Source: a virus
Virus record (IMG/VR): IMGVR_UViG_3300022542_000430
Strand: one strand, 5' to 3'
DNA: 45,329 bases
Below are positions 4,368 to 25,425 of the stretch, in pieces. Under the pieces are notes generated by a model. That model made no database searches and had not been told where the DNA came from. It worked only from the letters and a program-made list of their open reading frames with translations. Every line of letters starts with the position of its first letter. The first letter of the stretch is position 1. The translations under genes were made by a program, and so were the position numbers.

Positions 4368-5749
4368 TGGCTAGTTTACATATATACGACCTCAATAGTT
4401 GTGGTACACATCCTAGTATTTTAGGAGTGACAAGCGGAACTGTATTAAGTGCCTTTGACTTCGCTACTTTAGGGGCTTTGGTTTATTTAGGGGCTAACAG
4501 GGGTAGGCCTCCTATTGTTCCCGCAGAAACTTATACCCTTGATTATGTAGGAATAACTACTAATATGGCTACATGGGTTAGTATTTATGATTTACAAATT
4601 ACCGACTTAGTTAGTTGTGCAGACACGAACAAGGATAAGATGTACAAAATGGTTCAATGTGGAGAACCTAAGAACATTAGAGAGGTTCTTTTGACTTCGG
4701 CTCAAACTATAGGAGACGTTTTAGTATTTGGAGTTGAAGATACTGCCTGGATAGTACACGAATTAATAAGCACTTATGATGAAATTTTAACCATTACGGC
4801 TACTTATGCGAATTGTACCTTAGCAAATACATCACTATCAGCATCAGCGACACTAAGCGCAGAAGATGAAAGAACAATAGGTTACGCTGCTTTGGTTACA
4901 CCGATTAAGACTGACCCCGTAGATAGGGGATTCAATGATTGTTGCTTTAGTTTGAAGGTCTTAGCGGACTTGTCAGACGATGCAAGCTATAAGAATGATT
5001 TTACAAGCGTATTCTACCAAAGACAAACCCCTGCGGACACTATAAGCTATCAAATAATAAAGGTCGGAGGAGGTACGACTAATTTGTTAGATGGTACGCA
5101 TGGGGTTCTTTATGATTTTGCAGCTACGCATCATAATCCAGACTTAACCTATTTTAAAGTTGAGTGGAGGAAAATATATAATTTGCTAGGATTAGGCCAA
5201 TACACTATAAGAATGAATATAGTTGTCGGCGGTTTACCTTCTGTTGCCGTAGATAGTAACACTTTCAATTTAAAAGCGTTTAGTATAAATAACGCTGATG
5301 GTACAACTCGCTTTGATGGTTCTATGGATGGAAGGTTAGAAGAGATAAAAACCGACTTTAAGAACAGCGGATTTGAAACTAGTCTAAGAATTAGCGGTTA
5401 TTTTGGGAATAGAACCCCTAATATTGAGAAAGAAGATTTAGTCTATTCATCAAAAAAAGGGATAAGCTATTACAAGTCTCAAATAACTATGAAAAATGAT
5501 GATTCATTTAGTTATGAGGCTGAAAATATACCTGACTGTATTAGTAAACAATGGTTTGACTTTTTGATGTTCTCTAATGATATACAAATTAGTGACTACA
5601 ATAAAAATAACCATTCTTATGATTATGAATTATTCGACGTGGAATTGGACGAAATAAGCGAGCCGATATATCCACCACAAAACAGAGGTGTTACTATTCA
5701 GGCTAAATTTAAAAGAAGATCAAAGAATCAAATAAAAACTAACTGTTAA
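4367..5749 (+). CDS. tail / baseplate structural protein (460 aa)
   Basis: Coupled start (TAATG) to the upstream tail gene; position only. Confidence 0.6.
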   Translation: MASLHIYDLNSCGTHPSILGVTSGTVLSAFDFATLGALVYLGANRGRPPIVPAETYTLDYVGITTNMATWVSIYDLQITDLVSCADTNKDKMYKMVQCGEPKNIREVLLTSAQTIGDVLVFGVEDTAWIVHELISTYDEILTITATYANCTLANTSLSASATLSAEDERTIGYAALVTPIKTDPVDRGFNDCCFSLKVLADLSDDASYKNDFTSVFYQRQTPADTISYQIIKVGGGTTNLLDGTHGVLYDFAATHHNPDLTYFKVEWRKIYNLLGLGQYTIRMNIVVGGLPSVAVDSNTFNLKAFSINNADGTTRFDGSMDGRLEEIKTDFKNSGFETSLRISGYFGNRTPNIEKEDLVYSSKKGISYYKSQITMKNDDSFSYEAENIPDCISKQWFDFLMFSNDIQISDYNKNNHSYDYELFDVELDEISEPIYPPQNRGVTIQAKFKRRSKNQIKTNC

Positions 5750-6030: not shown

Positions 6031-7533
6031 ATGCCAACTAAAGTATATCCAAGCGGTTCAAATGTCATCGTAGACCAAACAGGGCAACCACTCCTTACTA
6101 TCTTAAAGGAGAGGGCAAAGTATGTCATTATACAACCTACCGTATCAGTAGATGGAATTACCCCTCCTGTTGCATTTACTATTCAATTTATTGACATTTT
6201 TAATGGAGACATTAGGACTGAATCAATAGCGAATGTACAAGACAGTACAGGGGCTTCTTTTGCTAGTCAAATTTTACTAGAAAAATATTTGAGGTTTATT
6301 CCTCATACCTCAACTACACTTTTAGTTGAGCAGCCAACAGTACACACTAAGTACGCTGATTCAATGAGTGTTGATGCTTTTGGACGTGCTAGGGTTTCAA
6401 GTACAGGACAAAGGTTAGATGTGGAGTTTATATATAACAAGCAAGAAGAAATATTTGATGAGGTATTAATTGGAGCGGCAACAGTAACGCATAATGCCAA
6501 CTCTAGGGATTTGACACTAGCTATTAATAGTGCGGTAAATGCTGATAGTGCGGTGATGATGAGTTACCCCGTTCCTTATACTCCTGGGAACTCTCAGTTA
6601 GTGGCAATGACTGGAACAATAAATGAATCTTCTTTAATTGGTGGAGGTGTTGAAATATTTATGAGGTCTAATGTCACAGGTTCTGTTGTTGATACGGCAT
6701 ACTTGCAATCTGATTGGAATATTAATACGGTTGATAATGTTGAGTGGGACACGTCACAGATTTTTATAATGGACTTCCAGTCTTTAAAAGTTGGGCGTAT
6801 TCGTTTTGGACTAGATAGAGGAGGCGTTATTATTCCTGTTCATTCTATTAAAAATGATAACATAAGAAGTACGGGTTTTTGGCAGTTACCTACGTTACCT
6901 ATATCATGGAGAATATATAACGATGCTACCAATACATATTGTGAAGTCTGTTATGGTGACGAATCTAATGGTATAGGATTTAGGTATAAAATTACTGTTG
7001 ATGCTACTGCTCAATTACGGGCTATTTGTGCAACGGTAAAAAGTGAAGGCGGTAAAGATTTAGTTGATTTAACTGGATTCAATAGAACGGCACACATGGG
7101 ATCTAGTAGAGCCACTGTTGGTAATTCCTTGATCCCTATTATATCAATAAGGCCAAAAGCTACTTATAATTCTATTACTAGTAATGGTCTTGTAATCCCT
7201 ATATCTTTTTCAGTAGATAGTGATAATCCTATTCAGTTGATTGTGGTACATGATGGAGTATTAACGGGTGCAGCGTGGAATGACGTAGACACTACTGAAT
7301 CTATCCAAGAAATTGATATAACAGCAAGTTCTTTAGCTAATGGGCATGAAGTTTATTGTGATTATTTTGGTACTGGTAAGAATCAAAGTAACTCAGCAGG
7401 GGGAATTTTAGGAAAGACTTTGTTATGGGATAGAAAAGGAACAGAAACAGGTGTATTTACTATTTGTGCTATAAGAACAACTAATACCAGTGCAGATGTA
7501 TTAATTAGTATTAATTCAAAAGAAATAAGGTAG
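6031..7533 (+). CDS. putative tail fibre / receptor-binding protein (500 aa)
   Basis: Last large ORF of the tail module, Ser/Thr/Asn/Gly-rich; assignment by position only. Confidence 0.45.
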   Translation: MPTKVYPSGSNVIVDQTGQPLLTILKERAKYVIIQPTVSVDGITPPVAFTIQFIDIFNGDIRTESIANVQDSTGASFASQILLEKYLRFIPHTSTTLLVEQPTVHTKYADSMSVDAFGRARVSSTGQRLDVEFIYNKQEEIFDEVLIGAATVTHNANSRDLTLAINSAVNADSAVMMSYPVPYTPGNSQLVAMTGTINESSLIGGGVEIFMRSNVTGSVVDTAYLQSDWNINTVDNVEWDTSQIFIMDFQSLKVGRIRFGLDRGGVIIPVHSIKNDNIRSTGFWQLPTLPISWRIYNDATNTYCEVCYGDESNGIGFRYKITVDATAQLRAICATVKSEGGKDLVDLTGFNRTAHMGSSRATVGNSLIPIISIRPKATYNSITSNGLVIPISFSVDSDNPIQLIVVHDGVLTGAAWNDVDTTESIQEIDITASSLANGHEVYCDYFGTGKNQSNSAGGILGKTLLWDRKGTETGVFTICAIRTTNTSADVLISINSKEIR

Positions 7534-8329: not shown

Positions 8330-8593
8330 ATGGGAATTAATTTAATTGAGATTGATGGCAATTCGGCTACTTTTGAAAATAGCGAAGGGTCTTTGGAAGG
8401 TAGTTTGACATGGAATGACCCCGTTGAGAATGGGGGTATTTGGGAGGTTACTTTTCAAGGAACAGATACTTTGAGCGACCCTATATCTACTCAGACTACA
8501 GAGATAGACCAATCTGAGACTATTAACCCTACAAAGGTTTTTTGGTGGATTGCGAACAAGTTAAAAGAGGTTCTTTGTCCAGAATGCGAATAA
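8330..8593 (+). CDS. hypothetical protein
   Basis: 87-aa ORF, last gene before the convergent terminator. Confidence 0.5.
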   Translation: MGINLIEIDGNSATFENSEGSLEGSLTWNDPVENGGIWEVTFQGTDTLSDPISTQTTEIDQSETINPTKVFWWIANKLKEVLCPECE

Positions 8594-13106: not shown

Positions 13107-13142
13107 TTCAATTTCTTTAGTCGTTAATTAATTAGTGTGACA

Positions 13143-13150
13143 CAAATATA
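13143..13150 (-). promoter_or_regulatory. Bacteroidota-type -7 promoter box (TATATTTG) for the leftward early operon
   Basis: Reverse complement of CAAATATA is TATATTTG, a perfect TAnnTTTG; lies ~37 nt upstream of ATG 13106. Confidence 0.6.
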
Positions 13151-13177
13151 CAACGGGTTTCTTTAATTTCCTAATTA

Positions 13178-13221
13178 TTAGAAAGAAATTAGAAAGAAAT
13201 TAGAAAAAGATTGGAAAGTTA
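13178..13221. repeat. four phased 11-bp direct repeats (TTAGAAAGAAA x2, TTAGAAAAAGA, TTGGAAAGTTA) in the divergent control region; operator-like
   Basis: Read directly; one helical turn per repeat; located between the two divergent -7 boxes. Confidence 0.7.
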
Positions 13222-13232
13222 AAATATTATTG

Positions 13233-13240
13233 TATCTTTG
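13233..13240 (+). promoter_or_regulatory. Bacteroidota-type -7 promoter box (TATCTTTG) for the rightward early operon
   Basis: Perfect TAnnTTTG 29 nt upstream of ATG 13269; a TTGG lies 18 nt upstream as a possible -33 element. Confidence 0.6.
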
Positions 13241-13908: not shown

Positions 13909-13946
13909 AAATCCCAAAGCGGTAAAACTAATTATTAATAAAAAAA

Positions 13947-13953
13947 CTTGACA
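13947..13953 (+). promoter_or_regulatory. start-proximal CTTGACA box
   Basis: AAAAAACTTGACAAAATG; 2 nt before ATG 13956. Confidence 0.55.
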
Positions 13954-13955
13954 AA

Positions 13956-14120
13956 ATGGATATAAGCGAAAAAACAATGAAGGGAATGGAACTTCATGAA
14001 CAAGTTCAAATAACAACAAAGGGTAAATATCCAACTACCTTTTTCATAACAAGAACAATAGGCGGATGGATTTACGAATCATCAAACGAACCTGTTCAAT
14101 TCGTTTTCGTAAAAGAGTAA
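13956..14120 (+). CDS. hypothetical small protein (54 aa), absent from the ORF track
   Basis: Hand translation MDISEKTMKGMELHEQ...FVFVKE ending at TAA; preceded by the CTTGACA box in the standard register. Confidence 0.5.
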   Translation: MDISEKTMKGMELHEQVQITTKGKYPTTFFITRTIGGWIYESSNEPVQFVFVKE

Positions 14121-14155
14121 ACACCCACTTAAAAATTAATTTAACTAAATAAAAA

Positions 14156-14162
14156 CTTGACA
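14156..14162 (+). promoter_or_regulatory. start-proximal CTTGACA box
   Basis: AAAAACTTGACAAGATG; 2 nt before ATG 14165. Confidence 0.55.
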
Positions 14163-14164
14163 AG

Positions 14165-14635
14165 ATGAAAACAATATTCAGTAAAGAATACCTATTAGAG
14201 AATAAAGGATACTACGATAATGAAGATATAGAAAAAGGAATGCTTCATTTCAAAGAAAACAAAGAAATAACTTTGGAGCAGCTTTTTGAGTACCTACCGA
14301 TTAAAGACTTCTGTTGGTTGTTAGTCAGAAAGTGTGAATTAAGTTTATTACAAAAGCAATTCTTTAGTTTATCGTGTGCCGATTTTGTTCTGAAATTTTA
14401 CGAAGCTAAATACCCAAATGACATGAGGGTTAGAGAATGCAACAAAGCGACTAGAGATTATATAAATGGCGATATTAGCAAAGAAGAACTTTTAACTTAT
14501 GCCGCTTCTGCGGCTTCTGCGGCTTCTGCGGCTTCTGCGGCTTCTGCGGATTATGCGGCTTATGCGGATTCATTAGTAGAATTTAAAGAATCAGTAAGAG
14601 TCTTTGTTTTTGAAACCCTCAAAACTATAAAATAG
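14165..14635 (+). CDS. hypothetical protein with C-terminal (AAS)n / AAYA repeat
   Basis: 156-aa ORF; contains 8 tandem 9-bp units at 14501-14572. Confidence 0.6.
   Translation: MKTIFSKEYLLENKGYYDNEDIEKGMLHFKENKEITLEQLFEYLPIKDFCWLLVRKCELSLLQKQFFSLSCADFVLKFYEAKYPNDMRVRECNKATRDYINGDISKEELLTYAASAASAASAASAASADYAAYADSLVEFKESVRVFVFETLKTIK
14501..14572 (+). repeat. 8 x 9-bp tandem repeat (GCGGCTTCT and variants) inside the CDS
   Basis: Read directly; encodes AASAASAASAASAASADYAAYADS. Confidence 0.85.
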
Positions 14636-15958: not shown

Positions 15959-16001
15959 CCCTGCCACAAACGGCACTTATAACTTATCAACAACTTTAAA
16001 A

Positions 16002-16008
16002 CTTGACA
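16002..16008 (+). promoter_or_regulatory. start-proximal CTTGACA box
   Basis: TAAAACTTGACAGAATG; 2 nt before ATG 16011. Confidence 0.55.
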
Positions 16009-16010
16009 GA

Positions 16011-16607
16011 ATGAAAGAAACATGGAAGCCAGTAAATCACAAAGGCAAAACGTACCTAAACTACAAGGTGTCAAATCTTGGTAACGTTTGGAAGATAAAA
16101 GATAACAAAATCCTTAAACCTGTTATCTTAAAAACTGGCGTACACTATTCCTATTTAGTAGAAGGGAAGAAAAACATTCCTATTCATTTGTTAGTTTGGC
16201 AGTCTTTCAAAGGTAAGATTAAGGAAGGGTTTTTAATCTCTCATAAAGATGGAGATAAGTATAATAATCGCCTGGAGAACTTAGAAAAGATTACACATAG
16301 ACAAAAGCAGTCTAAAGATAACGGGCTTCCTATTGGGGTACTACTCACTAAGTCGGGTACATTTAGATCAAGCATTCGACTAGGTAAAAAAAAGCTTCAT
16401 TTAGGTATTTATTTACGTGCTATCAATGCAGATAAGGCTTATGAGATAGCTTATAAATTAATCATAAGCGGAAAGTGTACCGATGAAATAAAGATTAAAG
16501 AAGCGGTCAATGTCTTGCGTAAAAAGATACGGCTCAAACCTTTGCTTGATGCAACTAGGAGACTAAGCACACAACCGAAGCCTAAACATATTATTTATAA
16601 TTGGTAG
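16011..16607 (+). CDS. HNH homing endonuclease (NUMOD4 + HNH_3 + AP2-like DNA-binding region)
   Basis: WKPV..YKVSNLGNVW (NUMOD4), HKDGDKYNNRLENLE (HNH), GVLLTKSGTFRSSIRLGKKKLHLGIY (AP2-like). Confidence 0.85.
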   Translation: MKETWKPVNHKGKTYLNYKVSNLGNVWKIKDNKILKPVILKTGVHYSYLVEGKKNIPIHLLVWQSFKGKIKEGFLISHKDGDKYNNRLENLEKITHRQKQSKDNGLPIGVLLTKSGTFRSSIRLGKKKLHLGIYLRAINADKAYEIAYKLIISGKCTDEIKIKEAVNVLRKKIRLKPLLDATRRLSTQPKPKHIIYNW

Positions 16608-16622
16608 CTATCTTAAATTAAG

Positions 16623-16646
16623 AAGGGCAAAAATGACCCCTTTTTT
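16623..16646 (+). terminator. weak intrinsic terminator after the HNH gene
   Basis: AAGGG (16623-16627) pairs with CCCTT (16638-16642); the T run extends to 16646. Confidence 0.4.
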
Positions 16647-16663
16647 CTGATAATATATAGAAA

Positions 16664-17026
16664 ATGAGAAATGCTGAACAAATAAAAGGGCTACTTGGTT
16701 CTAGTGAAAAATCAAACAACTTGCTAGGAATTTACTGGTGCTTCCATAATGGAATGTTTGCTGATGACATTATTGACTTTTTAAGAATAGATAATGAGCA
16801 TTGGGATATTGCCGAAATTGAAATAAAAGGGAATCTATTATTAGGGATTGACGTAATAGAGCAAAGGACATATGAAAGGTGTTTTTTTGATGTGCCACTA
16901 AGGAAAAGAATTGAGATGATAGGGTTAAAAACTATTATTTCTTTTGATGAGAATATGTTTCAATTAATAGAGTTCATTATTACTGAGGAAGGAAAAAGAT
17001 ATATCCAAATGAGCATTAAAAAGTAA
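16664..17026 (+). CDS. hypothetical protein
   Basis: 120-aa ORF. Confidence 0.55.
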   Translation: MRNAEQIKGLLGSSEKSNNLLGIYWCFHNGMFADDIIDFLRIDNEHWDIAEIEIKGNLLLGIDVIEQRTYERCFFDVPLRKRIEMIGLKTIISFDENMFQLIEFIITEEGKRYIQMSIKK

Positions 17027-17059
17027 CTGGTTATAACTGGTTATTTTTAGGATGTTTAA

Positions 17060-17242
17060 ATAATTATTCGTATATTGTGGAACGGCAGTAAGTAAGGTGA
17101 GATATACTTTCTGTTGAGTTACAAAAAACAAGACCAAAAAAATATAATTTCTAAAGATATTAAAGCTTTGGAGGTACTAGGATTACACGCAATTTCTTGT
17201 TTTAGTCGTGTTTCTCACCCTATACCTCCAAAGCTTTTTTTT
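17060..17242 (+). promoter_or_regulatory. leader element A: 27-nt conserved promoter-like box, ~150-nt structured leader and long terminator hairpin (candidate attenuator, antitermination site or sRNA)
   Basis: Box ATAATTATTCGTATATTGTGGAACGGC (17060-17086) is identical to 18214-18240. GGTGAGA 17096-17102 complements TCTCACC 17213-17219. The 15-bp stem 17162-17176/17223-17237 is followed by a T run to 17242. Confidence 0.6.
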
Positions 17243-17258
17243 GTTTAAAATTGAAATT

Positions 17259-17846
17259 ATGGATATTGAAAATTGTGCTTATTCATTTGAAGGAGAATAT
17301 TTCGACAAGAATAAAGAGTTTTGGGAATCTGACGACCTAGACCCTATTGATTCTTTTTTTATATCATCACTAAAGGTGTTTCACTATAGCGATACTTCGG
17401 AGTCGTGGCTTCCTTTTATTGCCTCCTATGAAGATGTTATATTCCTTCCTTCGTTTAATGGCGTTAAAGTAGGTGATGTATTTTTGTCGAGTCGGGTTGA
17501 ATGGATGGAAAGAGCAGACGATAAGCCTAATAATATTATATCTGTTTTTGATATTAAGAAAGAACTAAACTACACATATCTAGTTTTTGGAAACGACGAA
17601 ATAAGCCTATCTGTTGATATTAATCACATAGAGCGATACATAAAAGATATAGGAGCAAAATACATTTGCAACGCATTTGACGACAAACACCTAATGTATG
17701 ACAAGTGTTCATTTGAAAGAAATATGGTTGAAAAATCTCATTTAAAACGGTGTTTGCGGTACTACAAAGAAGGGTTTGAGGACTTATCACAGGAGAAACT
17801 AGAAAGAGAGATAGAAGAAGGATTACACGACATGCCATCTAACTAA
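17259..17846 (+). CDS. hypothetical protein (195 aa)
   Basis: Start moved to ATG 17259 (MDIENCAY); the track GTG start at 17208 lies inside the terminator hairpin. Confidence 0.6.
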   Translation: MDIENCAYSFEGEYFDKNKEFWESDDLDPIDSFFISSLKVFHYSDTSESWLPFIASYEDVIFLPSFNGVKVGDVFLSSRVEWMERADDKPNNIISVFDIKKELNYTYLVFGNDEISLSVDINHIERYIKDIGAKYICNAFDDKHLMYDKCSFERNMVEKSHLKRCLRYYKEGFEDLSQEKLEREIEEGLHDMPSN

Positions 17847-17870
17847 CCCACCGAAAAAAACAACGAAATT

Positions 17871-18200
17871 ATGAAAGAAGAAATTATAATTGATTTCATT
17901 TATTTAAGATACAAAGCGATGTACGGATTCCCTCAAGGTTATTGTGGGCAAATCGCAGAGGAGATACAAAAAACCATTGGAGGGGAATTAGTAGCAGGGT
18001 ATTTGGCTTTCCCTTCTCACAATAGGGAGCATTGGTGGTTGGATTTAGACAATAAGATAATAGACCCGATGTCTGTTGAATTACAAAAAACCGACCCACA
18101 TAGGCATATAGAGATACATAGAGATTTGTCAAGAAGGTACTGGATTAAAGGATTTAATAAACAAAAAAAGATAAAAGCAAACGAAGGAATGCCCTTCTAA
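17871..18200 (+). CDS. small transglutaminase-like / papain-fold cysteine peptidase-like protein (109 aa)
   Basis: GYCGQIA ... REHWWLDL ... IIDP follows the Cys / His-aromatic / Asp-Pro order of the transglutaminase-like core. Confidence 0.4.
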   Translation: MKEEIIIDFIYLRYKAMYGFPQGYCGQIAEEIQKTIGGELVAGYLAFPSHNREHWWLDLDNKIIDPMSVELQKTDPHRHIEIHRDLSRRYWIKGFNKQKKIKANEGMPF

Positions 18201-18213
18201 TTTTGCGGTCTGG

Positions 18214-18415
18214 ATAATTATTCGTATATTGTGGAACGGCGAAAGCCAAATGCTATTTAGAATGTGAGAGACTCTATGTAGTAAGTTTAAAAGAAACAAA
18301 CTAAAAATATAACTTCTTTTCAATATCAAATGGTATTGAAGAGAGTAGCACGTGCTTTATGTTTCTTTTGCACACTCTCAAACTTTTACGCTACTTTCTT
18401 CAATACCATTTTTTT
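18214..18415 (+). promoter_or_regulatory. leader element B: paralog of element A upstream of the replication initiator and helicase genes
   Basis: Same 27-nt box (18214-18240). GTGAGA 18264-18269 lies upstream and TGAGAG 18265-18270 complements CTCTCA 18375-18380. AAAAATATAACTTCT sits at 18303-18317. The 19-bp stem 18330-18348/18391-18409 is followed by a T run to 18415. Confidence 0.6.
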
Positions 18416-18431
18416 GTTTAATTTTAAACTT

Positions 18432-19262
18432 ATGAGAGGATTTGTAAAGTTACACAGGCAACTTATAGAATGGGAATGGTATCATGATATGAATGTAAAG
18501 GCTACTTTCTTGCATTTACTGCTTACTGTTAATTTTAAGGATAAGCGATGGAAAGGTATATTAATCAAGCGAGGGCAAATATTAACTAGCTTGCAGCACT
18601 TAGCCGATGCTATTGGTATATCAGTGCAAAAACTACGCACAGCACTACTAAAGCTAGAGGACACTAATGAAATAACAAGGGAAGCAACAAGCCTTTTTAC
18701 TATGATAACTGTCTGTAACTTCGACAGTTACCAAGATAAAGACCTTATGCAGCAACAAGCGGATAACAAACCATCAACAAGCGAGCAACAAGCGGATAAC
18801 AAACCATCAACAAGCGAGCAACAACTACTAGAGAATGTTAAGAATGAAGAGAAGGATAATAATGAAGAGAAAAAATACCCTTACATAGAGATTTTCCAAA
18901 AAATAAAAAACGGCGAATTAATCAGAGTAACACAATTAGATAAAAACTTTCACTTTGGCTTATTCCCTGATGATTGGTCTGAAAACTTCCAAAATGAAAT
19001 ACTTAGCTTTTGGCGTTACATGGAAAGTAAGAAATCAGATCGTTGGGGCGTAATTGGAACAATATCTAGTCAATTAAGCGCAATTAAAAGTTATTTACAA
19101 GATTACACCGAAAATGAGATAATAAGCGCATTTGGCGAAACCATAAGCAAAGGAAATGTTTCTTGGAATCCTCTTTGGACTAAAAACCGAGATAAAATCT
19201 CAAAAGCAAAAAACGGACACGTTCCCACTTTTTCATATAACAGCAAAATAAGCAACGCATGA
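18432..19262 (+). CDS. putative replication initiator / replisome organiser (N-terminal winged-helix domain)
   Basis: MRGFVKLHRQLIEWEWY...FLHLLL..N....W.G....RGQ.LTS...LA...G.S....R.AL..LE is typical of phage replication-protein N-termini. It lies immediately upstream of dnaB. Start moved from 18330 to ATG 18432. Confidence 0.6.
   Translation: MRGFVKLHRQLIEWEWYHDMNVKATFLHLLLTVNFKDKRWKGILIKRGQILTSLQHLADAIGISVQKLRTALLKLEDTNEITREATSLFTMITVCNFDSYQDKDLMQQQADNKPSTSEQQADNKPSTSEQQLLENVKNEEKDNNEEKKYPYIEIFQKIKNGELIRVTQLDKNFHFGLFPDDWSENFQNEILSFWRYMESKKSDRWGVIGTISSQLSAIKSYLQDYTENEIISAFGETISKGNVSWNPLWTKNRDKISKAKNGHVPTFSYNSKISNA
18752..18825 (+). repeat. 2.2 x 33-bp tandem repeat (GCAACAAGCGGATAACAAACCATCAACAAGCGA) inside the initiator gene; candidate origin iterons
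   Basis: Read directly; encodes QQADNKPSTSE twice. Confidence 0.8.
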
Positions 19263-20707
19263 ACCAAGAACTACCAAACGAACCAGAAGTTGAAGCAAGA
19301 TTGTTATCTGCAATAATTCAAAGCCCTGCAAGTATTTACAATTGCCTTAGCTTATTGAACGCTGAATGTTTTTATACTCAAAAATATAAGAACCTATGGG
19401 AATTAATAATTGAGCTACACAATAAAAAAGAATCATTTGATTTAGTTGGGATAGCATCAGGACTAAAAGATAAAAACCAATTAGAAGCTTTTGGAGGATT
19501 CGCAGGAGTTGCAGACTTTACAAGTAAATACTTTACTCACGATGTTACAGGAGCAAGTCGCATCCTTCACTCTAAGTTCATAAGAAGGAAAGCTATTGTA
19601 TCAAATTACGAACTAATCCGATTAGCTTTTGACCCAATGACCGACATAGAGACAGAAATATCAAAAGCACAAAACAAGCTAAATGAGGACATATCTAGTC
19701 ATATTGACATTACTAGCACCGCTCAAGATGTTTCAATGGATATAGCAAGGGAAATAAGTGATAATCTAGGGAAATACAAAGAAGTTACGGGCGTTCCAAC
19801 TGGCTTTGAAAGTTATGATAAAAGAATTAGCGGATTATCAACAGAAGGAGATATAATAATAATCGCAGGTCGTCCAGCGATGGGAAAAACAACTTTTGCT
19901 TTAAATATTGCTCAAAACGCACAAAAGATATTTGGGAACAATGGCGCATTCTTTAGCCTTGAAATGAGTAAAAGGCAGCTTTGTAGAATCCTTTTAGCCC
20001 AACAAACAGGTGTTTCTGCTGATAGTTTAAAGAAAAACAAAGTAACTGACATTGAAATAGAGCATATTTTCAACAAACTAGCAGAAGATCCAAAGGCAAA
20101 GCTATTTATAGACGATGAAAGCCCACAATTAAGCTACATTGTATCTAAAATCCATAAATTAAAGCGTGACGAAGATATACAATTTGTTGTTATCGACTAT
20201 ATGCAACTAATCGCTTGTGAAGCTAAGAACAACAGGGAAAAAGAAATAGAGCATATTTCAAGAACATTAAAGAGAGTATCAAAAGCACTTGAAATAGCCA
20301 TAATTCCACTTTGTCAACTAAGTAGAGCAGTTGAGAATAGAGGGGGTTCTAAAGTGCCTCAATTATCAGACTTAAGAGACTCAGGCTCTATTGAACAAGA
20401 TGCTTCTGTAGTTACTTTTATTTATAGACCAGAGTATTACGGAATAACACAAGATGAAGAAGGAAACAGCCTTGAAGGTGTTACCGTTTTGGTAACTAAA
20501 AAGAATAGATTTGGAGAGATAGGGAATGATTATTTATATTTTGATAAAGAAATGTCAGAGTTTTTTGATTATGACCACACAACAGGAAATAAAGTATCTG
20601 CTGATATGTATGATATGAGATTAGTAACAATGCAAAATATGAGAGTAGATACTGTTAGTAATTTTGCACAAAAAATAGAAGATGAAAACAAAACAGAGAA
20701 TTGGTAA
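19259..20707 (+). CDS. dnaB: replicative DNA helicase, DnaB family
   Basis: Walker A GRPAMGKTTFALNIAQ, VVIDYMQLI, LCQLSRAVENR, LSDLRDSGSIEQDASVV. Confidence 0.92.
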   Translation: MNQELPNEPEVEARLLSAIIQSPASIYNCLSLLNAECFYTQKYKNLWELIIELHNKKESFDLVGIASGLKDKNQLEAFGGFAGVADFTSKYFTHDVTGASRILHSKFIRRKAIVSNYELIRLAFDPMTDIETEISKAQNKLNEDISSHIDITSTAQDVSMDIAREISDNLGKYKEVTGVPTGFESYDKRISGLSTEGDIIIIAGRPAMGKTTFALNIAQNAQKIFGNNGAFFSLEMSKRQLCRILLAQQTGVSADSLKKNKVTDIEIEHIFNKLAEDPKAKLFIDDESPQLSYIVSKIHKLKRDEDIQFVVIDYMQLIACEAKNNREKEIEHISRTLKRVSKALEIAIIPLCQLSRAVENRGGSKVPQLSDLRDSGSIEQDASVVTFIYRPEYYGITQDEEGNSLEGVTVLVTKKNRFGEIGNDYLYFDKEMSEFFDYDHTTGNKVSADMYDMRLVTMQNMRVDTVSNFAQKIEDENKTENW

Positions 20708-21846: not shown

Positions 21847-22063
21847 AAGCCGTTTAAAACAGAGGAATTAGCACGAGATTTTATAAAATCTTACAGGGAA
21901 ACACCGAAAAAGGGCGAAACGCTTGTTATTATGAAAGAACTACTCAGGGATAAGTAGAGAAGCCTACGAAGAGTGCCAAAATGCGAAATTGAATTAACGA
22001 GCTTTATGTCGTGAAAAGAATACACTTGAAGCGTAAAAATTACAAATTAAATAATTATTAAAA

Positions 22064-22070
22064 CTTGACA
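22064..22070 (+). promoter_or_regulatory. start-proximal CTTGACA box
   Basis: ATAATTATTAAAACTTGACAAAATG; 2 nt before ATG 22073. Confidence 0.55.
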
Positions 22071-22072
22071 AA

Positions 22073-22345
22073 ATGAAAATAAGCGTACCATTTACAGCCC
22101 TTCAATTAGTTGGAGATAGGACTAAAATTGAAATGAATTGCATTTGCGGACAACCGATAAAGCGAGAGGATATAGAACTCTTTGTAAGGACAAAGGGAAA
22201 CAATACAAGAACTAATCTATCCTTTGAATGCTCCAACTGCACCTATGTAACCGAGAACAGCGAATGGGGCGAAATTACAGACGACAAAGAAATAATTGAA
22301 TCAATATTTGATAACGTAGACCAAAACTTAAAAAACAATGTGTGA
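22073..22345 (+). CDS. hypothetical zinc-ribbon-like protein
   Basis: CICGQP ... CSNCTY cysteine pairs. Confidence 0.5.
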   Translation: MKISVPFTALQLVGDRTKIEMNCICGQPIKREDIELFVRTKGNNTRTNLSFECSNCTYVTENSEWGEITDDKEIIESIFDNVDQNLKNNV

Positions 22346-23514: not shown

Positions 23515-24698
23515 GATAATTTGTTTCTAATTTCAGTTAAATGGTCAATACGTTGCCTTGTGCTTTGACCTTTGATAAGTGTATTCATTTCCCCAAAGGT
23601 TTTGAGTACAAGACTGCCATTGACAGAACACCAAACCCTATCACGTTTCCGACCTTCGCCTTTCTCAATATCTCCTTCCTTCGTGTGTGCCGTAGCAAAA
23701 CCAATAGGCGCAGATGTCTCATTATCAATAACCTTTGGGTTACTTTGACCTTCGTCTTTAGCCTTAATCTTCGTTATAGCTTCTTTCTCTTTGTCTTTTT
23801 CTCCTTCCTGTAACCTCAATATTGACTCATTGTCTTCTACTTCGTCTCTTTCGTACTTTGCACACCAAGCATAAGAGGGGATAAAGACAGCCAAAAGAAC
23901 TAAGGTAAGTAAGGATAATCCAAATCCAAAAGAATCGCACCATGCACCAAATTCGGACTTCATAATCTTGTTTTCCTCCTTAGCTAAACCTATTGCATCT
24001 TTCTTATCTGCCATCAAAACAGCAAATACCTTTTCCTTTGCCGAAATTAGGCTATCTGTTCTTTGTTCCTTTTTCCTATGGGTTTTTGCTGCTGCACTTC
24101 TTATCCTAGGTGGGCAACCTTTGCAGTCAACTTTACTATGAACAATAAAAAAAGCAGCAGCAGAACTTGAGGCTTTGAATATATCCATGTTCCGAGCAGT
24201 AGTATCTTTATTGATAATATTGTCATTTCTTAGGACAACCATATCAATATTGTGATAGTCAGGTTGTGCAGCGAAAAACTCAACAGCGTAAGGGCTATAA
24301 AAGAAAGTCGAAGCAGCATAAAAGAACCCAAGAATAACAATTAAAGCATACAAAACAGGGCTTACAGATGTTTCATCATCGTACTTTTGCTCTGAAATAG
24401 ATTTATTAACCCAATTAAAAGCAAGTTCAAGCCCAATACTTAGGCATATAGCTAAAGGGATAGATAAATAAGGGCTATCTAACTTCTCTAGTGACCAATG
24501 CACAAATCCAGTACTAGCTAATAACGCACTGCAAAACTGACAGAAAACCCAAACAGCCGTAAGGATATAGAAAACCTTTTTAAGTCGCTGTATCTTTGTT
24601 TTTGGTTGGAATTTACGTTTTTTTGCTTCGTGCTTTTTTTTGTTTACTCGTAAAGTTGTCTCTTTATTTACATCGTGGTGTGAAATGTTATCGCTCAT
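23511..24698 (-). CDS. hypothetical polytopic membrane protein (395 aa)
   Basis: Basic N-terminus, about 4 hydrophobic helices and a charged C-terminal domain; preceded by the CTTGACA box. Confidence 0.65.
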   Translation of the reverse strand: MSDNISHHDVNKETTLRVNKKKHEAKKRKFQPKTKIQRLKKVFYILTAVWVFCQFCSALLASTGFVHWSLEKLDSPYLSIPLAICLSIGLELAFNWVNKSISEQKYDDETSVSPVLYALIVILGFFYAASTFFYSPYAVEFFAAQPDYHNIDMVVLRNDNIINKDTTARNMDIFKASSSAAAFFIVHSKVDCKGCPPRIRSAAAKTHRKKEQRTDSLISAKEKVFAVLMADKKDAIGLAKEENKIMKSEFGAWCDSFGFGLSLLTLVLLAVFIPSYAWCAKYERDEVEDNESILRLQEGEKDKEKEAITKIKAKDEGQSNPKVIDNETSAPIGFATAHTKEGDIEKGEGRKRDRVWCSVNGSLVLKTFGEMNTLIKGQSTRQRIDHLTEIRNKLS

Positions 24699-24700
24699 CT

Positions 24701-24707
24701 TGTCAAG
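24701..24707 (-). promoter_or_regulatory. start-proximal CTTGACA box
   Basis: Minus strand reads AAAAACTTGACAAGATG; 2 nt before ATG 24698. Confidence 0.55.
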
Positions 24708-24724
24708 TTTTTAAATTATTAACT

Positions 24725-24874
24725 TTAATCGTCTAAGGTTTCTGTATTTAATGGTCTTTCAAAAGTTGGCAACAAAAAAGAATATATAAAAGCAAAGGGC
24801 AGTACAATAACTAAAACAATAGGAAGCAAAATACCCATAGTAATAGCTAGAATCTTATATTGCATATCTTCCAT
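24725..24874 (-). CDS. small membrane protein (49 aa), absent from the ORF track
   Basis: Hand translation MEDMQYKILAITMGILLPIVLVIVLPFAFIYSFLLPTFERPLNTETLDD; preceded by the CTTGACA box. Confidence 0.5.
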   Translation of the reverse strand: MEDMQYKILAITMGILLPIVLVIVLPFAFIYSFLLPTFERPLNTETLDD

Positions 24875-24876
24875 TT

Positions 24877-24883
24877 TGTCAAG
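24877..24883 (-). promoter_or_regulatory. start-proximal CTTGACA box
   Basis: Minus strand reads ATAATAATTAAAAACTTGACAAAATG; 2 nt before ATG 24874. Confidence 0.55.
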
Positions 24884-24914
24884 TTTTTAATTATTATGAA
24901 TAGTACTGAGTAGT

Positions 24915-25139
24915 TTATTCCGTAGGTTTAAGCGTTATTGTAACTTCATTGTTTCCATCATCTTTCCAATCGTAATGTTTTTGAAAAACAAAAGTCTTTC
25001 CATGTAAATCATGAAGCCCTCTAAGCATATGAAAGCTATCTAAAATCCCCTTTAGGTCTAATAAAAACAAATCTACATTGTCAGGATTCGTGGCGTTTAC
25101 CATATCTGTAAATGTTTCAATCTTAAATTCTTTGTTCAT
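24915..25139 (-). CDS. hypothetical protein
   Basis: 74-aa ORF preceded by the CTTGACA box. Confidence 0.55.
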   Translation of the reverse strand: MNKEFKIETFTDMVNATNPDNVDLFLLDLKGILDSFHMLRGLHDLHGKTFVFQKHYDWKDDGNNEVTITLKPTE

Positions 25140-25141
25140 TT

Positions 25142-25148
25142 TGTCAAG
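25142..25148 (-). promoter_or_regulatory. start-proximal CTTGACA box overlapping the upstream gene's TGA stop
   Basis: Minus strand reads AAAAACTTGACAAAATG; 2 nt before ATG 25139; the TGA of gene 25144..25425 lies inside the box. Confidence 0.55.
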
Positions 25149-25425
25149 TTTTTGTATTAGGTAAAAACGTTAATTGCTTCATGTACCCACGATAAAGGCA
25201 GTTGTGTAAGTAGTATACTTCTTTTCTCGTTAGTTTTAATTCTGTTTTTATTTTAATTAGTTTTTCTTCTTTTTTATGGACAGTTATTAAAATAACACTC
25301 TTGAATTTAAAGATAATTAGGTCAGTAGTATCAGCTAAAGATAATGTGATGCTAATATCCTCATAGTTTCTTAATATGTCAAGCCCTAACTCTGTAACCT
25401 CTTTTGATTTTATTCTCCAAAACAT
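25144..25425 (-). CDS. hypothetical protein, first gene of leftward operon
   Basis: Start moved to ATG 25425 (MFWRIKS); the track TTG at 25437 belongs to the CTTGACA box. Confidence 0.55.
   Translation of the reverse strand: MFWRIKSKEVTELGLDILRNYEDISITLSLADTTDLIIFKFKSVILITVHKKEEKLIKIKTELKLTRKEVYYLHNCLYRGYMKQLTFLPNTKT

Follow-up and report, generated by a model that had tools for sequence, protein, structure and literature searches.

Elements A and B in the phage genome

In the window, by which we mean the whole stretch of viral DNA analysed here (45,329 nt), the stop codon of the ORF 16664..17026 is separated from the ATG at 17259 by a gap (17027-17258) that houses element A. A second copy of this element, B (18214-18431), precedes a DnaD-like replication gene, and the parts of both are collected in Table 1. 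The sequence-only reading of this DNA had claimed that the gap is not random spacer, and this claim holds: all the features that it listed are present where it had placed them, including GGTGAGA, AAAAATATAATTTCT (17138-17152), TCTCACC and the T-run to 17242; there is the second copy, and the element belongs to a family of 16. The second complement, the segment X, the inner hairpin P2 and the family status go beyond that reading.

Table 1. Positions of the parts of elements A and B and of the genes behind B
Feature	Position	Strand	Remark
A, 27-nt box ATAATTATTCGTATATTGTGGAACGGC	17060-17086	+	base for base the same as the copy at 18214-18240; spans the -7 region and the predicted first transcribed bases
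A, -7-like element TATATTGT	17071-17078	+	differs from the Bacteroidota TAnnTTTG by one missing T
A, outer leader strand GGUGAGA	17096-17102	+	partner is UCUCACC, 17213-17219
A, inner leader strand AAAACAAGA	17125-17133	+	partner 17195-17203 in the P2 loop; 9-nt Watson-Crick run at -37 from P1
A, A-rich tract AAAAAAATATA	17136-17146	+	between the inner strand and segment X
A, segment X AUUUCUAAAG	17147-17156	+	degenerate, G-U-rich mimic of the P1 3' arm; pairs with 17166-17175 (P1 5' arm) in a putative antiterminator hairpin
A, P1 5' arm of the terminator hairpin	17162-17176	+	pairs with 17223-17237
A, inner hairpin P2	17185-17211	+	ACACG 17185-17189 with CGUGU 17207-17211; minimum-energy fold
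A, P2 loop (17 nt), contains UCUUGUUUU (DNA TCTTGTTTT)	17195-17203	+	partner of the inner leader strand
A, UCUCACC	17213-17219	+	starts 1 nt past P2, ends 3 nt short of the P1 3' arm
A, P1 3' arm (17223-17237) and U-run (17235-17242)	17223-17242	+	candidate intrinsic terminator
A, spacer of ~16-17 nt and ATG (17259) of the 195-aa ORFan	17243-17261	+	from the U-run to the start codon
B, 5' flank: small terminator-like hairpin (18183-18197), then -33 TTTG (18202-18205)	18183-18205	+	hairpin at the end of the preceding gene
B, 27-nt box, same as in A	18214-18240	+	-7-like TATATTGT at 18225-18232
B, outer leader strand UGAGAG	18265-18270	+	partner CUCUCA, 18375-18380
B, inner leader strand AAAAGAAACA	18289-18298	+	partner UGUUUCUUUU, 18360-18369, in the P2 loop
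B, segment X (CUUCUUUUCAAUA region)	18312-18325	+	mimic of the P1 3' arm; partner is the P1 5' arm, 18334-18346
B, candidate terminator P1 (18328-18349 with 18390-18411)	18328-18418	+	22 pairs, one G-U workable on the + strand only; z = -4.2
B, inner hairpin P2	18352-18373	+	GUGC 18352-18355 with GCAC 18370-18373
B, U-run	to ~18415	+	3' of P1
DnaD-like replication initiator/helicase loader gene after B	18432-19262	+	11-nt iterons at 18751-18816
DnaB	19259-20707		follows the DnaD-like gene

As had been claimed, the 27-nt box recurs base for base; its 19-nt core, allowing up to 3 mismatches, was found at two sites only (A and B), against 0 expected from 100 shuffles. The box is the sole sequence conserved between the two elements, the rest of which has diverged. 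A looser descriptor scan revealed no third copy in the window, and stems of at least 7 pairs gave matches at chance level. The region is 100% identical in two independent assemblies (Logan SRR7716470 and JGI 3300022539), and therefore the element is not an assembly artefact. The search for homologues of the ORFan that follows A returned 0 among 5.8 billion proteins. Its start lies within a two-mismatch variant (17247-17261) of the start-codon motif AAACTTGACAnnATG, which is recurrent in this phage.

Regarding the promoter, the box contains TATATTGTG; the leftward early promoter is CACAAATATA at 13141-13150 (minus-strand TATATTTGTG), and the window's own early promoters read TATCTTTG at 13233-13240 and TATATTTG on the minus strand. 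A perfect TAnnTTTG is present at the same place in homologous elements, as in L004 (TATATTTG and TATCTTTG), L005 (TATCTTTG) and phi18:3 (TACATTTG). Bacteroides promoters carry a -33 TTTG ~19-21 nt upstream of the -7 element. A TTTG was found 19 nt upstream of the -7 element of B, and only TTAG/TTTA occurs at the equivalent -33 place in A. Judged from these motifs, the promoter of the cassette appears to be host-type, that is, sigma-A-type with a Bacteroidota -7 element, and the start site of A is predicted at ~17082-17087, within AACGGC. Since the -7 element departs from the consensus, the promoter of A and B may be weak or activator-dependent.

The 15-bp perfect hairpin described in the gap could be confirmed, and the hairpins are clearly more than chance: on the + strand of the window, no hairpin other than those of A (15 bp and 8 T) and B (22 bp and 7 T) combines 15 or more pairs with an interior of 25-75 nt and a T-run behind it. 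A and B thus have the stable hairpin containing G+C and the U-run directly behind it that mark an intrinsic terminator, and a U-rich tail was found in all 16 members of the family. The interior of P1 measures 20-59 nt across members, which is atypically large for an intrinsic terminator. From its sequence, P1 with the U-run would be a strong intrinsic terminator, and the RNA terminated at A is predicted to be ~158 nt long; the discrete ~160-nt RNA that the first reading had considered may be this product. The ~15 nt left before the ATG are too short for another promoter. Furthermore, G-U wobbles are present in the P1 of B, L4_2 and L031, and three of them in the 21-bp leader/loop helix of L047. 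These would be A-C mismatches on the opposite strand, which places the RNA on the + strand.

Relatives of the elements

The family comprises 16 elements with one layout: A, B, two in each of L004 and L005, one in each of L012, L013, L017, L018, L019, L031, L039, L047 and L050, and one in Cellulophaga phage phi18:3. The element of phi18:3 is located at about 3064-3194 of NC_021794.1 (complement), between gp008 and gp007. In each member, a Bacteroidota -7 box comes first, then the leader, a long hairpin with a U-run behind it, and finally the start codon. A further example (L104) was found in a Bacteroidales genome bin, the other relatives being metagenomic phages and the cultured phi18:3. All members have an ORF on the same strand downstream of them, and the distance from U-run to ATG is 10-25 nt in 14 of the 16. 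The stem sequences of P1 are unrelated among the copies and its pairing is preserved; conservation of the pairing in homologous phages, on which the first reading had made its proposal depend, was thus found in stems that differ in sequence. AAAATAWWA-like tracts precede P1 in about 10 of the 16 members. The leaders that were compared share their architecture and no conserved sequence core, and in a MAFFT alignment of the members the P1 arms, unrelated in sequence, were not placed in register. A descriptor scan gave 13 matches on the gene strand and 0 on the opposite strand, with 6 in reversed controls over two strands. Since the 16 members were gathered by eye from loci picked via one protein family, some selection bias is possible.

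B and most other members precede a replication initiator gene. Non-replication genes can also be found behind the elements, namely the ORFan after A and a SNF2-methylase in L004. The closest DnaD-like relative (L003, 78% identity) lacks the cassette altogether, and in Vibrio, Dulem and gut phages, whose DnaD-like relatives fall outside the group, the corresponding gaps measure 13-52 nt, with no space for a leader. Concerning sequences shared at the level of the box, L005 carries an analogous repeat of ~55 nt, AACGGCAGTA is common to A and L004, and the two elements of L004 have no box in common. In L004, duplicated gene starts and a remnant hairpin arm adjoining an element were also observed.

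The element had been described as matching no known RNA family, and the search of Rfam 15 agreed: no match was obtained, the whole window yielding only tRNA matches at gathering score. In the region 16950-18500, hits up to E <= 10 were generic long-hairpin noise far below the cut-offs, and twelve member loci returned nothing. INPHARED contained no nucleotide relative. The exact box is absent from IMG/VR, where a protein-based scan was also empty and a degenerate box pattern matched the L004 contig and, by chance, coding sequences only.

Pairing between the leader and the terminator interior

Two nested complements connect the leader of A with the interior of its terminator hairpin, an outer one (GGUGAGA/UCUCACC) and an inner one (AAAACAAGA/TCTTGTTTT). 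The outer complement, already pointed out in the first reading, is present and is significant jointly with the second one, but not alone: for this 7-nt pair the leader-loop duplex energy gave z = -0.6 against mononucleotide shuffles, and the duplex-energy test with such shuffles was not significant for A or B alone (z about -0.5). This test was replaced by cognate/non-cognate and dinucleotide-shuffle tests. Against dinucleotide shuffles, the nested two-part complement reached p = 0.005 in A and p = 0.010 in B, and the same test gave 0.012 for L4_1, 0.003 for L5_1, 0.0005 for L5_2, 0.0025 for L039 and 0.0005 for L012; per-element values over the eight two-part members ranged from 0.0005 to 0.04.

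When each loop was compared with its own and with foreign leaders, the longest leader-loop Watson-Crick run was 6-12 nt in cognate pairs versus 5.89 +/- 1.04 nt in 240 non-cognate pairs (Mann-Whitney p = 3.6e-8). The own leader ranked first for 12 of the 16 loops, that of A included. In addition, 10 members have the inner strand at one and the same place, about -37 from P1, and complements outside A/U occur in L012 (GAACCAG and ATACAGTATG), L017 (GTGCTTCACT), L047 (21 bp) and L039 (12 bp). The leader-to-loop pairing covaries over the 16 elements, and the covariation speaks for selection on the alternative structure that it would form.

A further pairing involves segment X, whose duplex with the P1 5' arm has -9.6 kcal/mol in A (cognate rank 1 of 16, z = -3.2) and -11.7 kcal/mol in B (rank 1 of 16, z = -2.9). 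Its cognate specificity is clear in A, B and L5_2 (z = -2.9 to -3.9), weaker in L4_1, L5_1, L018 and L050, and weak when all 16 members are taken together (p = 0.03). The minimum-energy folds of the nascent prefix show a nested structure, here called AT, which in A and B includes the X/P1 5' arm duplex; it competes with the terminator fold, T. For A the computed energies are -27.0 (AT) vs -38.5 kcal/mol (T), with a direct-path barrier of ~22, and for B they are -38.5 vs -48.1 kcal/mol, with a barrier of ~15. Averaged over the leader/loop helices, pair probabilities in the nascent prefix are 0.5-1.0 for 13 of 14 members, falling to 0.0 for 12 of 14 in the full-length nested ensemble; even at equilibrium, a weak P1 loses to the leader/loop helix of L047 (21 bp) and to that of L017 (10 bp). 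Computation shows the parts of the element, the covariation among them, the strand that carries the RNA and both of the competing folds. In nested-structure models the alternative structure would exclude the terminator and could form first, but the leader/loop pairing fits a static pseudoknot that coexists with P1 equally well, which software of this kind does not tell from a switch.

Two other ideas were evaluated and abandoned. In the first, an insulator would let AT form only in locally initiated transcripts; adding 150 nt of upstream RNA left the AT probabilities largely unchanged. The other was that the leader controls translation by base-pairing to the U-run and the start region; across the members taken together, such pairing showed no cognate specificity (p = 0.13). 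Only B has a strong duplex of this kind (TAAGTTTAAA, 18282-18291, with TTTAAACTTA, 18422-18431).

Possible mechanisms and their meaning

We consider it about an even call that A and B are bistable transcription attenuators within a modular promoter-leader-terminator cassette of Bacteroidota phages. In such a cassette, a promoter of the host sigma-A type would feed a structured leader of ~75-90 nt, which leads into a strong intrinsic terminator whose end lies ~15 nt ahead of the start codon. Its leader RNA would adopt two mutually exclusive nested folds, AT and T. AT would be built solely from RNA already transcribed when the terminator's 3' arm is still to come, with helices of two leader segments on the future terminator interior and of X on the P1 5' arm; T, the predicted thermodynamic ground state, would consist of the 15-22-bp P1 and of P2, followed by the U-run. 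AT could be finished before the P1 3' arm emerges, and would mask the part of the 5' arm that the 3' arm meets first. Because it would precede the 3' arm and mask the 5' arm, formation of AT would lead to read-through into the downstream gene; if AT were prevented or resolved in time, transcription would terminate and an RNA of ~160-180 nt would be released. Since read-through would depend on AT, the cassette would gate the gene module behind it (DnaD-like/DnaB in the case of B, the ORFan module in that of A). We infer the start site, the termination, the partition of the folds during transcription and the direction of the regulation. As trigger, an RNA-binding protein of phage or host acting on the conserved A-rich/X segment, factors that affect polymerase speed or pausing, or an RNA acting in trans may be considered.

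The first reading had named several candidate mechanisms. An attenuator with conditional termination is favoured, since the leader-loop pairing covaries and the nested alternative fold precedes and excludes the terminator. A ligand riboswitch finds no support, since the leaders share no aptamer core and match no Rfam family, and neither does a put/nut-like element: no conserved boxA/boxB-like motif was found, nor any N, Q or NusG-like protein in the 24 early-region ORFs searched, which are mostly ORFans.

The same helices could instead be part of a static pseudoknot, in which they coexist with P1 and P2 without any switching and the ~160-180-nt RNA is a stable sRNA with a function in trans, or a stabilising 5' structure of the mRNA. 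We regard this as unlikely. The strands do follow one another as in an H-type pseudoknot (leader strand, P1 5' arm, loop strand, P1 3' arm), the small GC-rich hairpin P2 displays the loop strand in a kissing-loop-like manner, the unit has its own putative promoter and terminator, and linkers of ~27 nt together with loops of 25-59 nt probably make the geometry feasible. However, such a fold leaves segment X of A, B and L5_2 without a role, the fixed short distance to a same-strand start codon is unusual for free-standing sRNA genes, no conserved sequence is available for a common trans-acting seed, and in L047 and L017 the leader/loop helix outcompetes P1. A chance succession of a plain promoter and a plain terminator, with incidental or compositional complementarity in a cassette that is mainly a recombination or module boundary, is very unlikely in our opinion. 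It would agree with the failure of A and B in the mononucleotide-shuffle test, with inner complements that are A-rich versus U-rich in both elements, and with the facultative nature of the cassette, missing in L003. For PeSL cassettes, which occur in T4-like phages, a role in homologous recombination has been suggested (PMC4122927), and identical boxes and tails could serve it here as well; the duplicated gene starts and remnant arm of L004 also fit this reading. Against this, the cognate and dinucleotide-shuffle tests control for composition and are still significant, the complements outside A/U and the constant position of the inner strand are left over, and the stems are kept by compensatory change, not by sequence identity.

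Processive antitermination driven by a factor (lambda Q at PR'-tR', N-nut, HK022 put, or NusG paralogues such as the Bacteroides UpxY) is another alternative, distinctly unlikely in our judgement, where the promoter would yield a short terminated RNA until a phage factor, loaded at the conserved box or leader, makes the polymerase resistant to the terminator; the pairing of the RNA would be secondary. In lambda PR'-tR', a promoter and then a terminator lie ahead of the genes. The cassettes have the same order, with a strong candidate terminator within ~160-190 nt that would have to be overcome for expression of the genes behind it, and two copies per genome of conserved structure, as in the systems of lambda (including 6S RNA) and HK022; moreover, A and B have diverged everywhere except in the box, which they share base for base, and the ~55-nt repeat of L005 and the AACGGCAGTA of A and L004 point in the same direction. 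On the other hand, no conserved qut/nut/boxB-like motif was detected, and none of the 24 ORFs of the early region that were searched, most of them ORFans, gave a Q, N, NusG/KOW or sigma-like match (PHROGs was used for 23 and Pfam for 20). The E. coli ops-like non-template hairpin is GCGGTAGC. The Bacteroides opsX core is YGCGNAGCR (PMC11685472), which the leader start AACGGCAGTA mismatches, and a KOW/NGN protein was not found in the early ORFs searched. Such a factor would also leave the cognate-specific covariation of leader and interior unexplained, and the two elements of L004 have no box in common; in put/nut RNAs the terminator lies outside the covarying structure, whereas in the cassette it is part of it. 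In plasmids pT181, pIP501 and pAMbeta1, a segment of the 5' leader that pre-empts a downstream terminator is the logic of control. Attenuation by a countertranscript as in these plasmids, with a cis antisense RNA that binds the leader strands, frees the terminator and shuts off the replication gene, seems hardly credible here. The resemblance to pT181 and pIP501 includes a leader before a rep gene (B and most members), a pre-emptor that would block a terminator near the start codon, and complements on hairpin loops; a cis antisense RNA would also explain the free divergence of the paired sequences, and the minus strand of the A-rich tract, TTATATTTTT, resembles a -7 element. Yet a perfect minus-strand TAnnTTTG in the linker is present only in L013, the others having at least one mismatch or a wrong spacing, so that a convincing antisense promoter is lacking; the sequence upstream of the box yielded no minus-strand terminator, and the ORFan of A and the SNF2-methylase of L004 are not replication genes. 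In addition, the pre-emptor of pT181 pairs with the 5' arm of the terminator, whereas the leader of the cassette pairs mainly with the loop interior, in a phage and not in a plasmid.

Among other known systems, the bistable attenuator proposed here resembles classical attenuators and riboswitch platforms (trp, pyr, T-box, TRAP, PyrR) in having a promoter-proximal leader, exclusive antiterminator and terminator folds and a decision that would be taken co-transcriptionally. It differs in that no leader peptide, conserved aptamer, protein-binding repeat or Rfam match is present, and in that its antiterminator would be formed by the leader on the terminator interior, plus a mimic of the 3' arm in some members, and not by simple sharing of the 5' arm. 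In the CI RNA of P4 (seqA/seqB/seqC) and c4 of P1/P7, intramolecular complementarity in a phage leader likewise governs premature termination; these RNAs, however, are processed trans-acting immunity factors with conserved sequences, whereas the partners in the cassette are unique to each copy and match no c4/CI family in Rfam. The PeSL cassettes of T4-like phages (PMC2839356, PMC4122927) are also small boundary cassettes, present or absent in close relatives and with conserved flanks that could allow modules to be shuffled, but their stem-loop lies immediately upstream of an early promoter, with SD and start codon behind it, whereas here promoter, leader, a much larger hairpin that pairs with the leader, and start codon follow one another. 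A 5' leader that pairs with the interior of a terminator hairpin would be a geometry unlike that of textbook attenuators.

In a broader and more speculative sense, which we put forward only tentatively, these elements may represent an unrecognised class of phage riboregulators: portable modules whose own folding pathway, or a dedicated phage factor, would decide on transcription of the module behind and so set the timing from early to replication functions; or else sources of abundant ~160-180-nt RNAs whose 5' end would dock in the terminator loop and which could function in trans, as a decoy or a nuclease-resistant RNA. To our knowledge, almost nothing is known on the timing of gene expression in phages of Bacteroidota, either of marine Flavobacteriia or of gut Bacteroidales, and we know of no catalogued structured regulatory RNA of this kind for them. 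If true, a covarying bistable leader before replication and early modules would be a concrete handle on the regulation of these phages, for which Cellulophaga baltica #18 and its phage phi18:3 are a cultured pair that carries an example. A recombinant RNA polymerase of B. fragilis is described in PMC11685472. It might also provide a compact and portable terminator switch for synthetic biology in Bacteroidota.

Genome context and the two elements of the window

At about 45 kb, the window appears to represent a whole phage genome; its G+C content is 33-38% and its promoters are of the Bacteroidota type (TAnnTTTG). Its sole cultured relative is Cellulophaga phage phi18:3, and no close relative was found in INPHARED or IMG/VR. 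The leftward genes include those for an ERF recombinase and an amidase, and the rightward early/replication operon contains a RusA-like protein, an HNH endonuclease, element A, a 195-aa ORFan, a 109-aa ORF, element B, a DnaD-like initiator, DnaB and a DNA methylase.

A sequence-only reading had described element A in the gap upstream of the 195-aa ORF as a promoter-like box, a leader and a terminator hairpin whose T-run ends 17 nt before the ATG. All these parts were found in place (Table), as were the exact second copy of the box and the leftward early promoter cited for comparison. The 27-nt box has only these two sites in the window at up to 3 mismatches, with 0 expected. Element B follows the same plan (box, ~90-nt leader, A-rich tract, hairpin, U-run, ATG), and A and B are the only hairpins of such size in the window with a T-run following. 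They have in common the box and the tail TTTTTTTGTTTAA; the rest has diverged, the pairing in the stems being preserved by compensatory change. Since this region is 100% identical between two independent public assemblies, an assembly artefact is ruled out. In B only, a leader segment is perfectly complementary to the nucleotides immediately before the ATG, a pairing that could hide the start region in one conformer; it is not general over the family (p = 0.13).

Other signals were observed in the genome. The divergent early promoter region holds, between its two -7 boxes (leftward and rightward), three to four tandem copies of a candidate operator or iteron site, and an Imm5-like ORF contains about nine tandem copies of a 9-nt repeat encoding a three-residue repeat. 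Directly after the HNH gene there are a small hairpin and a T-run, so that this homing-endonuclease-like gene appears to have a terminator of its own. ARAGORN called only a tRNA-Cys; a second tRNA-like Rfam match (36.7 bits) was not called. The 11-nt iteron-like direct repeats inside the DnaD-like gene, both in the window and in the related contig L004, probably mark an origin of replication situated in the initiator gene itself, an arrangement seen in lambda O and SPP1 gene 38. In addition, the motif AAACTTGACAnnATG falls precisely on the start codon in seven or more genes of the early region, with cases on either strand; at up to 2 mismatches it has 13 matches against 2.6 expected, a number reached in none of 100 shuffles. 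It does not resemble a Shine-Dalgarno sequence, and the tail of element A matches it with 2 mismatches. This motif could serve as a signal for translation initiation specific to the phage, or as an operator of translation; inspection by eye of a few gene starts in L004 and L005 did not reveal it.

Features of the window (A, B) and of related contigs (L004, L005, L012, L039)
Feature	Sequence or size	Position
Divergent early promoter region		~13.1-13.27 kb
Leftward promoter	CACAAATATA (TATATTTGTG on minus strand)	13141-13150
Tandem copies between -7 boxes	AGAAAGAAATT	13169-13223
Start-codon motif, +	AAACTTGACAnnATG	13944-13958, 14153-14167, 15999-16013, 22061-22075
Start-codon motif, -	AAACTTGACAnnATG	24696-24710, 24872-24886, 25137-25151
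Repeat in Imm5-like ORF (14165-14635)	CTTCTGCGG	14487-14576
Hairpin and T-run after HNH gene (16011-16607)		16623-16650
Gap containing A	232 nt	17027-17258
Box, A and B	27 nt	17060-17086, 18214-18240
A outer pair	GGUGAGA/UCUCACC	17096-17102 with 17213-17219
A inner pair	AAAACAAGA/UCUUGUUUU	17125-17133 with 17195-17203
A-rich tract end, A	AAAAATATAATTTCT	17138-17152
A segment X and partner	AUUUCUAAAG/CUUUGGAGGU	17147-17156 with 17166-17175
A hairpin P1	15 bp, perfect	17162-17176 with 17223-17237
A T-run end; ATG		17242; 17259
Element B		18214-18431
B outer pair	UGAGAG/CUCUCA	
B inner pair	AAAAGAAACA/UGUUUCUUUU	
B leader and pre-ATG complement	TAAGTTTAAA/TTTAAACTTA	18282-18291 with 18422-18431
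B segment X and partner		18312-18325 with 18334-18346
B hairpin P1	22 bp, then seven U	18328-18349 with 18390-18411
ATG of DnaD-like gene		18432
Iteron-like repeats, window; L004	11 nt	18751-18816; 8341-8384
tRNA-like Rfam match		25779-25852
tRNA-Cys		26884-26955
L4_1 outer pair	UUAGGAAC/GUUCCUAA	
L5_2 outer pair	GUAGGAAG/CUUCCUAC	
L039; L012 inner pairs	12 bp; 10 bp	
L004 element 2, complementary segments (loop, leader, 9-nt copy; positions in ascending order)	TCGATGTGT, ACACATCAA, ACACATCGA	3179-3187, 3234-3242, 3298-3306
L004 duplicated gene start	92 nt	5569-5660, 7148-7239
L004 segment listed with duplication and hairpin-arm remnant		5548-5565
L005 repeated box	~55 nt	37-90, 1147-1205

A family of cassettes with cognate pairing

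Homologous elements were sought on contigs encoding DnaD-like relatives. Two were found in L004 (a 45.9-kb phage contig, 52% protein identity), two in L005, one immediately before the DnaD-like gene in each of L012, L013, L017, L018, L019, L031, L039, L047 and L050, one in a Bacteroidales genome bin (L104) and one in phi18:3, upstream of gp007/gp006. Each member combines a -7-like box (one T short of TAnnTTTG in A and B, perfect elsewhere) with a leader, a hairpin whose interior measures 20-59 nt, a U-rich tail and, shortly after, a same-strand start codon. The sequence-only reading had not recognised the element as a described RNA family, and no member has a match in Rfam 15. The downstream genes are mutually unrelated (an ORFan after A; a SNF2-methylase and a 182-aa ORF in L004), and the closest DnaD-like relative, in L003 (78% identity), is without the cassette, with 12 nt between the preceding stop and its ATG. 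The cassette is hence a facultative module.

L004 has a gene-start duplication (98% identity) beside a hairpin-arm remnant, which suggests recombination at cassettes. In its second element, the loop TCGATGTGT has two complements: the leader ACACATCAA and, immediately ahead of the start codon, a 9-nt copy, ACACATCGA. In L005, the near-identical box common to both elements runs past the -7 element on the upstream side and covers the stop codon and final codons of the gene before it, in the manner of a recombination sequence at a module boundary.

In every element the leader is complementary to the interior of its own terminator hairpin (P1). A uniform comparison of all leaders with all interiors was decisive: the longest Watson-Crick run came to 6-12 nt in the 16 cognate pairs versus 5.89 +/- 1.04 in the 240 non-cognate ones, and the cognate leader ranked first for 12 of the 16 interiors (p = 3.6e-8). 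In the window subgroup the complement is two-part and nested, exceeding dinucleotide shuffles of the leader in A (p = 0.005), in B (p = 0.010) and in the other six two-part members (p = 0.0005-0.04). The GGTGAGA/TCTCACC pairing of the sequence-only reading is one of the two complements in A, the 7-mer alone being within chance. A small GC-rich hairpin inside P1 (P2) presents the inner 3' strand in its loop, and the inner leader strand lies ~37 nt upstream of P1 in ten members. It should be noted that G-U wobbles occur in P1 of B, L031 and the second L004 element, as well as in the leader/loop helix of L047 (21 bp), and are compatible with the + strand only; the structure is thus RNA or + strand single-stranded nucleic acid.

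Competing folds and the proposed mode of control

When only the RNA made before the P1 3' arm was folded, the outer and inner helices enclosed a third hairpin, in which the segment just 5' of P1 (X) pairs with the P1 5' arm. X imitates the P1 3' arm in degenerate, G-U-rich form, a mimicry that is an antiterminator signature; in A, B and the second L005 element its pairing is cognate-specific (z = -2.9 to -3.9), but it is weak family-wide (p = 0.03). The leader/loop helices had pair probabilities of 0.5-1.0 in this prefix in 13 of 14 members, and in the full-length nested ensemble they were lost in 12 of 14, with P1 replacing them. The alternative and terminator folds reach -27.0 and -38.5 kcal/mol in A (direct-path barrier ~22), and -38.5 and -48.1 kcal/mol in B (~15). 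Because X occupies the part of the 5' arm met first by the 3' arm, the alternative fold, once formed, would keep the terminator from closing until after the U-run.

The cognate test and the shuffles contradict a reading in which an ordinary promoter and terminator show incidental complementarity. Instead of a switch, the RNA might form a static pseudoknot or be a small RNA in its own right, which we consider unlikely: nested folding cannot judge pseudoknots, but neither X nor the constant position ahead of start codons would be accounted for. Among the mechanisms listed in the sequence-only reading the attenuator is best supported, whereas for put/nut-like antitermination no conserved motif was found, nor a protein among the 24 early-region ORFs searched, most of which are ORFans. 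Antitermination of the Q, N or NusG type could act in addition, as the identical 27-nt box of A and B and the L005 repeat hint at a DNA-level site; however, these ORFs revealed no such protein, no such motif was found, and the leader/interior covariation would be left unexplained. Counter-transcript control of the downstream gene, which fits the replication-gene context but is without a conserved antisense promoter, seems very improbable.

In the best supported interpretation, A and B are copies of a portable promoter-leader-terminator cassette that houses a bistable transcription attenuator. Read-through would take place whenever the early-forming antiterminator fold holds; if this fold were prevented, termination would release an RNA of ~160-180 nt. 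As the ~15 nt ahead of each ATG leave no room for another promoter, expression of the downstream genes would require read-through. If a protein acts as the trigger, its most plausible target is the single-stranded conserved A-rich/X segment; polymerase kinetics or a trans RNA are alternative candidates. The cassettes resemble the PeSL cassettes of T4-like phages as mobile regulatory modules, although the order of their parts is the opposite. Attenuators as a kind are already known; this family of cassettes is uncatalogued to date, and its switch would gate the gene module downstream.
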